From a virus, in the IMG/VR virus record IMGVR_UViG_3300022752_003639, positions 32,001 through 96,000 of that record: a stretch of 64,000 bases of DNA; one strand, 5' to 3'. Position numbers and translations under genes: made by a program. Numbering within the stretch: the first letter of the stretch is position 1; every line of letters begins with the position of its first letter. Below, one piece after another: positions 29,784-45,623 of this stretch. The notes under the pieces are model-generated. The model made no database searches and was not told the origin of the DNA. It saw only the letters and a program-made list of their open reading frames with translations.

Positions 29784-32057
29784 ATGATTTCACCAAATAA
29801 AGAACTTGAAGGAGTTTTTGAACAGGCAGTAATAAAAGCTATGAAAATGCATCATGAGTATATCACTTTAGAGCATTTTTTACATTGTTTAATTAATAGT
29901 CAAGAACTTAACAAAATTTTAACTGACTTTGGGGCAGACCTAACTAGTTTAAATAGCGATTTAGATAGATATTTAGAAGAAGAACTATCTAATATTGTCA
30001 ATCTCGAGATACAAAAACCTAGGAAAACTCAAACATTTGACAGAGTATTAAACAAAACATTTACTACAGTTCTTTTTGGCGGAAAAACTGTCATCGAACC
30101 AATAGATTGTTTACTTGCAATATTTACAGAAAAGAAAAGTTATGCTCATTATTTTCTTAAACGAGCAAAAATAGATAAAGATAAATTGATTAACTTTTTA
30201 CAAAAAGAAAATATAAAAGAAGTGGTAGAGGATGAAACAGGTGAAACAAGATTACATCCACACTTAGAAAAACTTCTAAATCAGTTTTGCGTAAATTTGA
30301 CATTAAAAGCTAAAAATAAAAAAATAGATCCTGTTATAGGAAGAGAAAAAGAAATTGAAGAAGTTCAATTAGTGTTGGCAAGACGTAATAAAAGTAACGT
30401 AATTTTAATAGGAGACCCAGGAGTAGGAAAAACTGCTATAGCAGAAGGACTTGCTAAAAATATTGTAGAAGATAATGTTCCCTCTTTTATTAAAGAACAC
30501 AGTGTCTACAGTTTAGATATTAGTTCACTACTTGCCGGTTCAAAATATAGAGGTGATTTTGAAGAAAGATTAAAAACTGTTTTAACTGCCTTAGAAAGAA
30601 AGAAAAATTGTATATTGTTCATAGATGAAGCTCATATGATGAATGGTGCAGGCGCAGCCAGCGGCAACAGCAATGATATGGCTAATATGTTAAAGCCAAT
30701 ACTAACAAAAGGAACTATTAAAGTAGTTGCTAGTACTACATGGGAAGAATTTCGTAAACATTTTGAAAAAGATCGTGCATTGATGAGACGTTTTCAACGT
30801 GTAGTAATTGATGAGCCTAGTGAGGATACTTGTATAAAAATTCTTAAAGGTGTAAAAAAATATTACGAAAAACATCACGGTGTAAAAATTACTAATCAAG
30901 CATTGTTAGATGCAGTAAGTTATTCAGTCAAGTATATTCCTGATAAAAAATTGCCAGACAAAGCATTAGACCTTATTGACTGTGCTTGTGCTCGGTTTAA
31001 GGTAAAAGACGAAGAAAACGGTGTAGTAGACCATGAGGAAATTGTTTTTGAAGTTGCTAAGATAGCAAATCTTCCTATAGAACAGGTAGGTGCTAAAGAA
31101 TCAGTAAATCTTGAAAACTTGGACAAAACACTACGTCAAAAAATCTTTGGGCAAGAAAAGGCCATAGAAAGTTTAGTTGATAAAATCTATATTAGTCAAG
31201 CAGGTCTTAAAGCAGTTGATAAACCTATTGGTAGCTTTTTGTTTGTTGGGCCAACTGGAGTAGGTAAAACTGAAACAGCAAAGCAACTAGCCACTGGGCT
31301 AGGGATTAAACTAATAAGATTTGATATGAGTGAGTTTCAAGAAAAACATTCAGTGGCTAAATTTTTAGGCAGTCCGCCAGGATATGTTGGGTTTGAAGAA
31401 AATGCAGGTCAACTTATTACCAGTCTACAAGAAAATCCTAACTGCGTACTATTGCTCGACGAGGTAGAAAAGGCACATCCCGACGTACTTAGTATCTTAT
31501 TACAACTTATGGATAATGGATTTATAACAGGCAGCAATGGTAAAAAAGCAGATGGACGTAATGCTTTAATTATTATGACTTCAAACTTAGGTGCTGCAGA
31601 TGCTGAACGCAATTCTGTAGGGTTTGGTAGTCTAGAAAGAGACGGCGACCCTAAAGATGCTGTGAACAGATTTTTTGCGCCTGAATTTAGAAACCGTTTA
31701 GATGGTATGGTAAAATTTGGAAAACTTGATAAAATTACCATGGTAAAAATTGTAAACAAATTTATAGATGATCTAAATGTATTAATTAAAGAAAAAAATA
31801 TTCATGTTAGACCTAATTTAGCTGCGACTGATTTCTTAATCGCCAAAGGGTTTAATTCAAAAATGGGAGCTAGACCTTTGTCACGAGCTATTGACGAACA
31901 TATCAAGAAACCCCTTAGTAAAGAAATTCTTTTCGGAAAACTTAATAACGGCGGGCTTGTAGAATTAGATATTATAGATGATAAAATTGTATTCAATATA
32001 TTAGATATAATGCCTGTAAAAACTAAAAAACAAAGCGTTACAACGGAAATTGAATAA
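29784..32057 (+). CDS. clpA: ATP-dependent Clp protease ATPase subunit (ClpA-like)
   Basis: Clp-N domain; two AAA+ modules GDPGVGKT and GPTGVGKT; LFIDEAH; MGARPL; no ClpB middle coil. Confidence 0.9.
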   Translation: MISPNKELEGVFEQAVIKAMKMHHEYITLEHFLHCLINSQELNKILTDFGADLTSLNSDLDRYLEEELSNIVNLEIQKPRKTQTFDRVLNKTFTTVLFGGKTVIEPIDCLLAIFTEKKSYAHYFLKRAKIDKDKLINFLQKENIKEVVEDETGETRLHPHLEKLLNQFCVNLTLKAKNKKIDPVIGREKEIEEVQLVLARRNKSNVILIGDPGVGKTAIAEGLAKNIVEDNVPSFIKEHSVYSLDISSLLAGSKYRGDFEERLKTVLTALERKKNCILFIDEAHMMNGAGAASGNSNDMANMLKPILTKGTIKVVASTTWEEFRKHFEKDRALMRRFQRVVIDEPSEDTCIKILKGVKKYYEKHHGVKITNQALLDAVSYSVKYIPDKKLPDKALDLIDCACARFKVKDEENGVVDHEEIVFEVAKIANLPIEQVGAKESVNLENLDKTLRQKIFGQEKAIESLVDKIYISQAGLKAVDKPIGSFLFVGPTGVGKTETAKQLATGLGIKLIRFDMSEFQEKHSVAKFLGSPPGYVGFEENAGQLITSLQENPNCVLLLDEVEKAHPDVLSILLQLMDNGFITGSNGKKADGRNALIIMTSNLGAADAERNSVGFGSLERDGDPKDAVNRFFAPEFRNRLDGMVKFGKLDKITMVKIVNKFIDDLNVLIKEKNIHVRPNLAATDFLIAKGFNSKMGARPLSRAIDEHIKKPLSKEILFGKLNNGGLVELDIIDDKIVFNILDIMPVKTKKQSVTTEIE

Positions 32058-41796: not shown

Positions 41797-42176
41797 TGAG
41801 AGCAAAGGAATTTTTGCAGGAAAGATCTGCTAAAACACATGGTAAATTTACAAGTTTATCAGCAGACGCAGATGCGGCACTTCCTGGTGTATGGGTACAA
41901 AGACAATTAAGAAATACTGATCCATATATGCAATATAGATATGCACTTGCTGTGGCAGCAGCAAGGGCAGATAAAAGTGGTGAAATAGAATTTAAACAAG
42001 AAAGTCCATGGGCTGAAAATTTAACCATAGTAGGATATACTCCAGAAGATGCAGATGTTGTTTCCATGGCAGATAAATTAATGGGAGTCAAAGGTACACG
42101 TATTGCTGATGATAAAAGTAAAGAACCTAAAGATACAAACACCGTAAGCCCTATACCAAATTGGAATAAATCATGA
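41796..42176 (+). CDS. putative head-internal protein (paralogue B)
   Basis: MRAKEFLQE start, TAATG-coupled; ends TNTVSPIPNW. Confidence 0.75.
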   Translation: MRAKEFLQERSAKTHGKFTSLSADADAALPGVWVQRQLRNTDPYMQYRYALAVAAARADKSGEIEFKQESPWAENLTIVGYTPEDADVVSMADKLMGVKGTRIADDKSKEPKDTNTVSPIPNWNKS

Positions 42177-44974
42177 GCGAATATAAGAAAATAACTACAC
42201 CCACTTTAACTCGTTTCGTTCTAGAAACTATGACCGCAGGTGCCACAGGTTCTGCAAATATTGCCACATCGATGGGCACTATAGGCAAGACTATCAAGCG
42301 TCAACAAGAAGCCAAAGATGACAAGGTGCCTCAAAAGCCACGTCAAGGTCCCCTACGCCCACAGACAGGTGCAGGCGCACACAAAGATAAAAAGCGAGAT
42401 CAAAAACAGGGCAAAGAAAAACATCGCAAGCCTTTCTATGAGCAACATACAGATCATGAAGTGGAAATGGCGCAGAGTGATACATACCAGTTGGCCAAAC
42501 AGGCTGCAGAACTACATAAAATTCTAATGCGTGCCAGTGAAGAGCAGGGTCTAGAAGGTTGGCAACAGGCTAAGATCACAAAGGCAGCAGACTATATCAA
42601 TGCTGTCTACAAAAATCTCAATCACGATGTAGACATGGACGGTCATATTGGTGAGCAAGCTCTATCAGAATTAGAAAAACCCAGCGGAACACTTTATATA
42701 ATATTATTAAGAGACAGAACAGAATCTGTTCGTGTAGTAGGAGACTTTGGGACATTTCCAGCAGAAGTGCAGGCCCGTGCCAGCAAGGTAGGTATTAAGG
42801 ATAAAGAAGGTCGCAAAGAGCGTCCTCTAAAAGTTAATTTTCTAATGACTAGTGCCAGCCAGGCTCTAGCAGAATTAGACAAAGCACTAGCAGATGTAGA
42901 TTTTATCGGCGGAGAAAAGGCCGAGTTCGTATTTAAAAATTCTGCTTTTGAAACAGACATAGAAGATGAGGTGAGGGAACTAAATGATCTAATTCGAAGT
43001 GGTGCGGACGAAAGATTTAAGAACTATGAAGAACCAGAAGTAGGTTCCGAACCAGAGACCAAACCTAAAGGTGTAGATCATTTTGTTGTTGGTCCAGATG
43101 GCAAGCGTCGTCGTGTGCCTATACCAGGAAAGCCAAGTAGTCAAATGGGAGGTCATGCTGTAGAACAACCTAAAACATTTACCTACCAACTTAAGAAAAC
43201 AGAACTAGGTCCTAAACTACGCTCAATGGGCTTTAAGGTAGATGGTAGTCAAATTGTATTGAGCAAACAACAGCGTGATCAATTACTGGCAAAAATGGGT
43301 GATCAACAGTTCGGACAGATATTCGGCCAGGGTGGTAAGTTCACAGAAGGTGGCTATGACGATCAGTTTAGCCTCGGAGGCAGACTAGAAAGAGACGACG
43401 ATTTTCGCAATAGAGAACGCAATGCTGGAGTTGAACATGAAAGAAATAACTACCAGGTAAGCATAAATGGTAGGCCTTGGAAAGTGTTTGCCGATCAAAG
43501 GCAAGCTATGAATATTGCTAGAAGTCTTAAAATGAAAGGCAAAGAAGTAGAAGTTTATCCTACAGGAGCTAGGCCCTCAGAAAGCGTGGGAGAGGCAGTG
43601 AAGAAACCTAATGCTACTACTCGTCATTTAAGAGATTATCCAGTTAGTGATAAGGACGTGGCCAAGCCTGTTAAGAAACCTGAAAAGAAAAAACCAGAGC
43701 AAGGTGTGGCGGAAATGGACAAGAGCCAACCCAGCCACGGTCGTGATGGTAAGATTAGCCACAGCACCTATGGTTCAAGAGATAAAGAAGGTTCTGACTA
43801 TTTCAAAGGTAAGGAAGTTTCTGTTAAGCCTATTACCGTAAAGAAGATGGAAAAAGACGCACTTGATATTCTCAAGAAGCAAGGTGTGGCGGAAGGCTCA
43901 TTGGAAACTGACAATATGGTATCACATATTAGTCAGGTAATACAAAGCATTTATCCACGCGGTGGTGATAAAAATACATATATGAAACTGGTAGCCCGAG
44001 AAATGCCACGTATAGTGAAAGCCAATCCTAAACTATTCAGAAGAGCATTCGGTATGGCATATGATAGATTCTTTCATATAGACCAAGACGACGATCAAGA
44101 TGACGATTTTGATTATACTGATCATAGTATGCGTAAGGGTGAGCGTGGTATGGCGGAAGTCAGAGGCAATATTGATGCTGATCAAGCAGGATTTTATGTT
44201 GTCGACGAGGACGGAAACGCAGTTTCTGGTCCATTTGCTTCTAAACAAGAAGCATACGAACGAGCAGCCGAAATGGGTCGTATGTATGATGTAAAATATA
44301 AAGGTGATATAATACCTTTAGATTCGTTAATTAGTAAAATAATAAAGACACTACCACCAGATGTAACAAGTGATGATCTTCAGGACCCAATGGATCTTGA
44401 GCAACAATTAGAAATACTAAGAAGTCCATTAGTAAAAGTATTTTCTAAATTATCACCTTACGAACAAGCCGAAGTCACAGACGAAGTAGCGAATTATTTT
44501 TATGACAGAAGATTTGGTGATTTAGATGAAGGAAAGATCAAAGGTGTGGACGGTAAAGCCTGCTGGAAAGGCAAGCGTTATGCTGGCAAGGTCAAGAAAG
44601 CAGATGGCACCTACAAAGACAAATGTGTAGAGGATGTAGTAGAAGCACTAGAAGAAGTTAAAAAAGGTCTTTACTACTATGTGAACAAGCGTAAGAAGGC
44701 AGGCACCAGTAGACCAGCCAGCCATCCAGATGCTCCAAGTCCACAAGACTGGAAGAACGCTGCCAAGACTGCTAAGAAAGAAGATACCTATTCAGAAAGT
44801 CTGTTGAATCAACTGGATGCACTGTTAAATGAAAAGGCACCTCCAGGTGACAAGTATGAGCGTATGGTCAAGCATATTAAAAAAGGCTATAGCAAAGACG
44901 GCAAAATTACAGACAAAGAACGCAGCATCGCATATGCTACAGCATGGAAGGCTAAAAACAAGGCAAAAAAGTAA
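42173..44974 (+). CDS. large modular putative head-internal polyprotein
   Basis: 933 aa; many short charged modules bounded by Glu sites (GVAE, GMAE, LDE, LNE). Confidence 0.75.
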   Translation: MSEYKKITTPTLTRFVLETMTAGATGSANIATSMGTIGKTIKRQQEAKDDKVPQKPRQGPLRPQTGAGAHKDKKRDQKQGKEKHRKPFYEQHTDHEVEMAQSDTYQLAKQAAELHKILMRASEEQGLEGWQQAKITKAADYINAVYKNLNHDVDMDGHIGEQALSELEKPSGTLYIILLRDRTESVRVVGDFGTFPAEVQARASKVGIKDKEGRKERPLKVNFLMTSASQALAELDKALADVDFIGGEKAEFVFKNSAFETDIEDEVRELNDLIRSGADERFKNYEEPEVGSEPETKPKGVDHFVVGPDGKRRRVPIPGKPSSQMGGHAVEQPKTFTYQLKKTELGPKLRSMGFKVDGSQIVLSKQQRDQLLAKMGDQQFGQIFGQGGKFTEGGYDDQFSLGGRLERDDDFRNRERNAGVEHERNNYQVSINGRPWKVFADQRQAMNIARSLKMKGKEVEVYPTGARPSESVGEAVKKPNATTRHLRDYPVSDKDVAKPVKKPEKKKPEQGVAEMDKSQPSHGRDGKISHSTYGSRDKEGSDYFKGKEVSVKPITVKKMEKDALDILKKQGVAEGSLETDNMVSHISQVIQSIYPRGGDKNTYMKLVAREMPRIVKANPKLFRRAFGMAYDRFFHIDQDDDQDDDFDYTDHSMRKGERGMAEVRGNIDADQAGFYVVDEDGNAVSGPFASKQEAYERAAEMGRMYDVKYKGDIIPLDSLISKIIKTLPPDVTSDDLQDPMDLEQQLEILRSPLVKVFSKLSPYEQAEVTDEVANYFYDRRFGDLDEGKIKGVDGKACWKGKRYAGKVKKADGTYKDKCVEDVVEALEEVKKGLYYYVNKRKKAGTSRPASHPDAPSPQDWKNAAKTAKKEDTYSESLLNQLDALLNEKAPPGDKYERMVKHIKKGYSKDGKITDKERSIAYATAWKAKNKAKK
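43698..44158 (+). repeat. dispersed direct repeat AGCAAGGTGTGGCGGAA encoding QGVAE
   Basis: Exact 17-mer at 43698-43714 and 43878-43894; variant GGTATGGCGGAA at 44147-44158. Confidence 0.85.
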
Positions 44975-45014
44975 GTGAGCAGGAACCAGAAGATCCGACC
45001 ACGGATCCTGCTCA
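44965..45014 (+). promoter_or_regulatory. candidate programmed -1 ribosomal frameshift signal
   Basis: In-frame A_AAA_AAG (44965-71) right before TAA; stem TGAGCAGGA(44976-84)/TCCTGCTCA(45006-14). Confidence 0.65.
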
Positions 45015-45204
45015 GAAGATAAAACCAGTCGGGCCACAACCTAAACTAACACCTAACATGCCTCTAGATACATGGGTAGATAGATTTAAGAATGAAAAGA
45101 ATGTGTCCAAATATAAACAGTTTAAAAACAAGAGTCCGGAAAAACGTGAACAAATGGCCTGGGCTGCTTACTATGACGCACATGAACCAAAAAGGAATGC
45201 ATAA
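44971..45204 (+). CDS. 77-aa -1 frame extension of the 933-aa protein
   Basis: Open -1 frame VSEQEPEDP...WVDRFK...QFKNKSPEKREQMAWAAYYDA...; stop TAA overlaps the next ATG; no start codon before ATG 45058, which lacks an SD. Confidence 0.65.
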   Translation, partial: VSEQEPEDPTTDPAQKIKPVGPQPKLTPNMPLDTWVDRFKNEKNVSKYKQFKNKSPEKREQMAWAAYYDAHEPKRNA

Positions 45205-45623
45205 TGAGATCATATATTGCCATAGTTGAAGCGTTGAATAAGGGCTGCCCTGTGGCCACATATAATCTAGATGTTAATCTAAAAAATCGTCAAAAGGCCA
45301 TAGATGAATATCATTATGGTCCTGCTAATCCAGATGATGCCGGCGACTACTGGAAGAAGGCTGCTGCAAGATGGAATATCACAGAAAAAACTGCTAAGAC
45401 TATGAAGTGTGGAAATTGTGCTGCCTTTGATGTGTCTGATAAAATGCGTAAGTGTATGGAAGATGGTATCAAGGGGGACGACAAGGCTGTAGACAGTATG
45501 GCCACAATCGAAAAAGCAGATCTAGGTTATTGTAACTTCTTGCACTTCAAATGTGCCGGAACTAGATCATGCACAGCATGGGTCACAGGCGGGGTAATAG
45601 ATAACAAAGATAGAACTGAGTGA
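45204..45623 (+). CDS. Cys-rich hypothetical protein
   Basis: CPVAT, KCGNCAAF, GYCNFLHFKC..TRSC; N-terminus MRSYIAIVE. Confidence 0.8.
   Translation: MRSYIAIVEALNKGCPVATYNLDVNLKNRQKAIDEYHYGPANPDDAGDYWKKAAARWNITEKTAKTMKCGNCAAFDVSDKMRKCMEDGIKGDDKAVDSMATIEKADLGYCNFLHFKCAGTRSCTAWVTGGVIDNKDRTE

Follow-up and report, generated by a model that had tools for sequence, protein, structure and literature searches.

We analyzed a stretch of 64,000 nucleotides (nt) of the IMG/VR virus record IMGVR_UViG_3300022752_003639 (positions 32,001 to 96,000 of the record; hereafter, the window), and in it the 3' end of an open reading frame (ORF) that encodes a modular protein of 933 amino acids (aa). A preliminary description, made from the letters of the window, had proposed that a programmed -1 frameshift appends 77 aa to this protein. 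Our comparative analysis supports the proposal, and we put the probability that a programmed -1 ribosomal frameshift extends the 933-aa protein at about 80%. The support comes from the conservation of the shift signal among relatives, the coding character of the linker between the signal and the appended C-terminal module, the loss of the module's ATG in some relatives, and the in-frame fusion of the module in others.

Re-reading of the sequence bore out the anatomy given in the preliminary description (Table 1). The 3' end of the ORF reads AAG GCA AAA AAG TAA and thus contains an in-frame A_AAA_AAG heptamer. The -1 frame is closed upstream of the heptamer, remains open over 79 codons and ends at a TAA that overlaps the ATG of the next gene. 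A shift would add 77 new residues past the two shared Lys codons, so that the 933-aa protein becomes a 1010-aa one with the predicted junction peptide AKKVSEQEPEDPTTDPAQK. A_AAA_AAG is the dnaX site and the most shift-prone heptamer tested in E. coli (PMC5009743). The heptamer alone is not rare in the window, as A_AAA_AAR occurs in frame 21 times among about 19,550 codons; of the 21, the one at 44965-71 alone has a stop directly next to it together with a -1 frame that stays open for long.

Table 1. Features around the candidate frameshift site, in window coordinates
Feature	Position	Strand	Remarks
0-frame ORF, 933 aa, modular protein	42173..44974	+	DUF6321-like C-terminal domain, variable middle modules
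TAA closing the -1 frame upstream	44953..44955	+	blocks entry from ATG 44944 in the -1 frame
Slippery heptamer A_AAA_AAG	44965..44971	+	in frame, X_XXY_YYZ phase
-1-frame linker	44971..45042	+	Pro-, Glu- and Gln-rich; both sequence and length vary
0-frame stop TAA	44972..44974	+	abuts the heptamer
3' stem-loop	44976..45014	+	9-bp outer stem, 44976-84 with 45006-14; inner 4-bp hairpin, 44994-45005
Conserved C-terminal module	45043..45201	+	KL.P..D.W..F...Y.QFKNK.PEK..MA.AA; two helices predicted
ATG inside the module	45058..45060	+	sole canonical start in the -1 frame
-1-frame stop TAA	45202..45204	+	overlaps the ATG of the next gene
Next gene	45204..45623	+	its ATG at 45204 overlaps the -1-frame stop

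Relatives were collected from viral and metagenomic contigs by using the 0-frame C-terminus and the module as queries. Fifty-three distinct loci, including the window, have A_AAA_AA(G/A) plus a stop before the module. A scripted classification of 102 distinct loci placed the shift site before the module in 51, the module in frame in 33, and the module in frame with a second site inside it in 17, and left one odd arrangement (L111); its pattern missed the window and L057, both of which belong to the class with the shift site before the module. Of 38 distinct relatives inspected by hand, 37 have the heptamer in the phase seen in the window, as A_AAA_AAG or A_AAA_AAA, and TAA directly follows the heptamer in 37/38. 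In the inspected loci, NNA AAA AA(G/A) TAA closes the long 0-frame ORF, and the -1 frame continues into the module without meeting a stop. The codon before the Lys pair may be GCA, GAA, CCA, ACA, TCA, CTA or AAA; its final A is invariant, and the heptamer is thus preserved. The upstream proteins end differently in different loci (in a DUF6321-like domain, a Y.ESL...L helix, ...KHKGLPEKKPKK or ...NKGYKSHKAKK), and the signal thus travels with the module and not with the upstream domain.

The 9-bp stem with an inner hairpin, located 4 nt after the heptamer in the preliminary description, was reproduced by folding, with a predicted free energy (dG) of -18 kcal/mol and a z-score of -4.88; none of 200 shuffled sequences folded as well. 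As a downstream stimulator, we sought a stable RNA structure about 5-9 nt 3' of the heptamer and counted this stem-loop as one, its spacer being 4 nt to the stem and 6 nt to the conserved core. The signal recurs in relatives, the heptamer and stop in the above 53 loci and the stem core in 31, in which the stem starts 4-6 nt 3' of the heptamer. The 6-bp core AGCAGG/CCTGCT is present in 31/31 of these hairpin loci and fully paired in 30, and the helices comprise 7-12 bp, being extended outward (TG with CA) or inward (GCC with GGC, ACCT with AGGT). The loops to the 3' arm are 23, 26, 35 or 41 nt long, and one flanking pair is GC in 13 loci, TA in 4, AT in 1 and GT in 1. The synonymous sites of the 5' arm are frozen: GAG is used in 31/31 loci and CAG in 30/31, whereas in the remainder of the -1 ORFs these residues have these codons in 39% and 36% of cases, respectively. 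The 3' arm was found through its CCTGCT sequence, and its codon counts are therefore not an independent measure. In Rfam, the region matches the DnaX frameshift element RF00382 alone, at 44946-45015; the score of 19.3 bits is below the gathering score of 35 (E 0.066), 12 relatives gave no match, and the match is a resemblance, not membership.

We considered that the arrangement might be an artefact, namely an assembly indel that hides an in-frame fusion, or a decaying gene whose module was cut off by mutation. Errors are frequent in homopolymer tracts, and some members of the family are indeed in frame. However, Logan contigs (contigs, not raw reads) of four studies span 44965-71 and agree in having no indel in the A6G tract; one of them represents a strain with 16 substitutions and no gap. 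The same arrangement occurs in the 53 distinct loci, from many samples, and assembly error is not credible because dozens of independent assemblies share it. Purifying selection still acts on the module and linker, and conservation extends to the heptamer and stem, which argues against decay. We regard an artefact or a decaying gene as very improbable.

The -1 frame upstream of the heptamer shows some variation. From the ATG at 44944, it contains three codons before the TAA at 44953; position 44953 is C in a strain of run X8. L082 and L083 likewise have an open -1 frame upstream, with GTG at the position of ATG 44944; there, the gene caller predicts an overlapping ORF, P0010, starting MEGQKQGKKVSEQ, which is probably incidental.

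The linker before the module ATG has a coding signature. In the six loci first compared, it has no stops in the -1 frame and 1-5 stops in each other frame, and the heptamer-to-ATG distances of 83, 86, 89 and 98 nt differ by multiples of three in all cases, so that the frame is kept. The entropy of the nine codons before the ATG is 0.84, 0.78 and 1.38 at codon positions 1, 2 and 3, respectively, and the sequence P-K-L is kept synonymously (CCT/CCA/CCG, AAA/AAG and CTA/CTC/CTT/CTG/TTA/TTG). If ATG 45058 started an independent 48-aa gene, with the hairpin playing another role, for example in RNA stability, a linker that is stop-free in the -1 frame alone, has in-frame indels and third-position variation, and carries a conserved KL.P upstream of the ATG would be left unexplained. 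The window linker contains no canonical start codon, and the first start in the -1 frame, ATG 45058, is preceded by CCTAAACTAACACCTAAC, which has no Shine-Dalgarno (SD) sequence, as the preliminary description had noted. By a rough measure, the SD core motif is found before the module ATG in 0/25 loci, in contrast to 17/44 window genes; about 60% of the window genes likewise lack it, which favors an independent gene, as do the presence of the ATG in 25 of the 31 hairpin-class loci and the 48-49-aa proteins predicted by gene callers at the module (P0007, P0011). However, at the position of the ATG six loci have GTA, GTC, GTT or GGT, which encode Val or Gly, and the module therefore cannot be started there. 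In addition, 33 relatives have the module as the C-terminal domain of a long protein. An intrinsic terminator was ruled out for the hairpin, since no T tract follows the stem. Taken together, we consider an independent gene quite improbable.

The module, which begins 5 codons upstream of ATG 45058, was found in 165 proteins in an exhaustive hidden Markov model search of 1.84 billion representatives; it is located at the extreme C-terminus in nearly all of these proteins, which are up to 997 aa long. The in-frame relatives read ...ED.Y..SL...L.EKL.P..P.D.W..DFQ.ADPNKYHQFKNKTP.KK.QMA.AA..., and the K-L-x-P of these relatives corresponds in the alignment to the P-K-L-x-P that precedes the ATG in frameshift-class loci; the conserved domain thus starts before the ATG. 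In-frame fusion in relatives had been regarded in the preliminary description as evidence against a frameshift; 33 relatives have such a fusion, and we read it as support for the extension. The N-terminus of the window protein is homologous to P0014 (E 4e-23) and P0032, and the protein also has the ED.Y.ESL leader of the in-frame relatives. A 70-member alignment revealed a conserved N-terminal region of about 150 aa (window 42173-42650; MNNEFKK..., GAGAHKDKK, WQQ.KITKAADY) with weak DUF7230 matches, a highly variable middle, and a conserved C-terminal unit of about 75 aa that consists of the ED.Y.ESL leader and the module. Pfam matches of the 70 members were to DUF7230 (18) and DUF6321 (5) and otherwise scattered; the window protein had no Pfam match at E 0.1 or better. 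In the window lineage, a -1 shift is the sole way to reach the conserved C-terminal end.

An AlphaFold prediction with 38 sequences gave a two-helix domain for the module (pLDDT 81.5), with the confident region beginning before the Met. The module had no match in Pfam, PHROG or NCBIfam and none in PDB by sequence or fold, and the ESM Atlas gave just unnamed small viral clusters, below 0.9. Matches in BFVD (probability 1.0, TM-score about 0.67-0.71, E 0.02-0.4) were all to uncharacterized phage proteins. Among them are proteins of uncultured phages with assorted other domains, as well as one of 1006 aa from Prochlorococcus phage P-TIM68 and one of 250 aa from Agrobacterium phage Atu_ph07. Because this conserved terminal module sits on many variable cargo proteins, it is likely an anchoring or targeting tag. 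In L133 (1405-2274), L070, L074 and L132, the -1 frame runs beyond the module into further domains, by about 230 more residues with a basic end (...LAHWLANMKAGRAKK) in the case of L133; the shifted product can thus be much longer than that of the window.

In the 17 relatives with a second site, the long ORF ends in ...QFKNKTPEKKK at GAA AAA AAA AAG TAA (an A10 run) inside the module. In L102, L104 (1560-1660), L105, L107, L110, L112, L122, L129 and L184, this end is followed by the GC-rich palindrome GGCC(A/G)CAGCGGCC. The rest of the module (V-MATAALYKARQPK...), with its last 17 residues (MATAALYKARQPK...), then lies in the -1 frame, and such a 17-aa remnant cannot form a gene. In P0014, PEKKKVMATAAL stands contiguously, exactly as the -1 product of the second site is predicted to read. 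A strong hairpin lies within 8 nt of the run in 32/32 loci with A6/A7 runs and in 1/14 loci with A9/A10 runs, although each run-length class comprises few lineages and these counts are not independent. This distribution fits a hairpin that is needed for the minimal heptamer and dispensable on a long run, and it suggests two ways to the same fusion, depending on run length and hairpin. On the long A runs, polymerase slippage or ribosome sliding may take over.

Transcriptional slippage, in which the polymerase adds one A in the run, would yield the same 1010-aa fusion in the window without a ribosomal slip, the product being identical. Long A runs are classic substrates for such slippage, and just 1 of the 14 relatives with A9/A10 runs has a close strong hairpin. 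Thermus dnaX is an example of slippage on a long run (PMC5009743). However, the run consists of six As in the window and six or seven in the hairpin class, which is short of the about nine or more A/T residues that mark a slippage site, and it is always found in the X_XXY_YYZ phase with a stop and with a hairpin 4-6 nt on, none of which polymerase slippage needs. Transcriptional slippage at the window site is therefore improbable in our view.

In the programmed ribosomal frameshift that we favor, ribosomes on the 933-aa ORF would meet A_AAA_AAG with the 0-frame TAA next to it and would be stalled by the stem-loop 4-6 nt downstream. A fraction would slip back by one base on the two Lys codons, read through the Pro/Glu-rich linker and then the two-helix module of about 53 aa, and release the 1010-aa form at 45202-04, whereas non-slipping ribosomes would terminate and produce the 933-aa form. 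Given that the module is the normal C-terminal end of the family, the shift would set the share of molecules that carry it, and a fixed ratio of the isoforms, as suggested in the preliminary description, would be expected from the mechanism. The anatomy and conservation of the signal, the coding linker and the fusion in relatives can be read in the sequences themselves, whereas we infer the ribosomal nature of the shift, its efficiency and the role of the module.

Several points weigh against the programmed frameshift. No SD-like 5' stimulator is conserved upstream of the heptamer, and a spacer of 4 nt is close to the lower limit of what is usual. Classical covariation in the stem is weak and confined to the flanking pairs because the core never varies, and the stem arms also encode conserved E-Q and P-A. 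The ATG kept in 25/31 hairpin loci makes some independent initiation possible. The loci are related, so their counts are not independent events. More generally, the support rests on comparative sequence data.

In a broader, tentative reading, a portable recoding cassette is made up of the heptamer, the stop, the hairpin, the linker and the module. Recombination might have moved it behind different upstream domains, and it might tune the share of a cargo polyprotein that bears a C-terminal anchoring or packaging tag. The domains ahead of the cassette include DUF6321, the Y.ESL helix and the KHKGLPEKK and NKGYKSHK ends. As a part of this reading, which we think possible but rather doubtful, lineages would reach the same outcome in three ways: by in-frame fusion, by a shift on an A6-A7 run with a hairpin, and by an A9-A10 run without one. 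The record itself contains no second copy of the cassette or the module. In runs X1, X5 and X7, we also observed a commoner relative (depth 15-32 vs 5-9 for the phage of the window) that shares just 44960-45014 (55 nt, 7 differences) and a piece at 45276-45331 with the window; its preceding protein has a different end, ...WMKNKGYKSH, which fits cassette shuffling.

The mechanism is known and canonical, and the gene family is a new place for it. In gene 10A/10B of phage T7 and the major head protein gene of Lactobacillus phage A2, a -1 shift near the gene end produces a minority of extended protein. The window gene is similar in that a -1 shift close to its end would give a C-terminal extension; however, the T7 and A2 products are major capsid proteins with other slippery sites, whereas the window gene encodes an uncharacterized modular protein whose extension is a domain found in frame in relatives. 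Other phage examples of frameshifting are listed in PMC10885494, which also cites the A2 work. In E. coli dnaX, A_AAA_AAG, the lysine transfer RNA (tRNA-Lys) that decodes it and a 3' stem-loop a few nt on result in two products that differ at the C-terminus (PMC5009743). The window shares the heptamer and the 3' stem-loop with this tau/gamma system. Unlike in dnaX, in which the shift gives the shorter product, the window shift would give the longer one, the 0-frame stop abuts the heptamer, no SD-like 5' stimulator is conserved, and the protein is unrelated.

The ratio of the short to the long product of the lambda-type tail assembly chaperone G/GT is determined by a conserved -1 shift, located close to where the upstream ORF ends (PMC5009743). 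The window signal resembles it in being a conserved -1 shift site near the end of the upstream ORF and differs in the heptamer, in the absence of protein homology, and in that the gene does not lie between tail tube and tape measure genes. The orfA-orfB pairs of the insertion sequence (IS) 3 family (IS911, IS150) are fused by A_AAA_AAG plus a downstream structure (PMC5009743), the combination that would also join two frames in the window; however, the window protein is not a transposase, there are no IS ends, and the structure is a simple interrupted stem-loop. The shift in carboxysome CsoS2 A/B decides whether a repetitive, scaffold-like protein has its C-terminal region (PMC5009743), but it truncates the protein whereas that of the window would extend it, and the two families are unrelated.

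The window is contained in a 138-kb record with a CheckV completeness estimate of 35%. The public runs that bear the sequence are lake and freshwater metagenomes of several studies, with no RNA run among those listed, and the record has a T4-type family B DNA polymerase, tail fiber and baseplate genes, and cyanomyovirus-like pieces; the phage is an uncultured freshwater T4-like one. The neighbors of the 933-aa gene encode a ferritin-like protein, an unknown protein, a carbamoyltransferase and DNA polymerase. The window has no tRNA genes, hence no phage tRNA-Lys there. The last 50 or so aa of the 0-frame protein are 72-80% identical to cyanophage proteins, one of which, from phage Sf-CH11, carries a DUF6321 annotation, and the relative P0038 matches DUF6321 at 1.4e-10. 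These cyanophage proteins were matched via the DUF6321-like piece alone and end without the heptamer or the extension. Among isolated phages, a tblastn search with the module gave no match, and none carries the 933-aa protein or the module.

The suggestion in the preliminary description that the product is a head-internal polyprotein is a plausible guess. The gp21 protease of T4 cleaves by the [LIV]xE rule, and the QGVAE junctions between the modules of the 933-aa protein fit this rule. The relatives are T4-like, and a gp21-type prohead protease (PF03420) is found in 3/5 long related contigs; searches of the 138-kb fragment, which is 35% complete, for gp21 protease and gp23 capsid protein gave no match, a result that is uninformative since the controls were silent too. 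The 17-nt sequence AGCAAGGTGTGGCGGAA, which encodes QGVAE, is repeated exactly at 43698-43714 and 43878-43894, 180 nt apart, and an 82% copy occurs 264 nt further on at 44142-44158; all three copies sit at module junctions, and in relatives a QGVAEG junction recurs directly before the terminal unit. The genes after the polyprotein gene (45204-45623 in the window and the downstream genes in L102-L129) begin with M-R-x-x-E-F or M-R-S-Y-I-A-I-V-E, starts that are loosely like the T4 capsid-targeting sequence. The latter sequence ends in I-x-E.

Gene callers split the protein into a 933-aa product and an orphan 48-aa ORF, and recognizing the shift corrects this annotation throughout a family of large proteins from uncultured T4-like phages of fresh and marine waters. 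The family also constitutes a natural experiment for recoding, since homologous genes have the same C-terminal domain in frame, downstream of a heptamer with a stimulatory hairpin, or downstream of a long A run. The conserved terminal module on highly variable cargo points to a targeting role.

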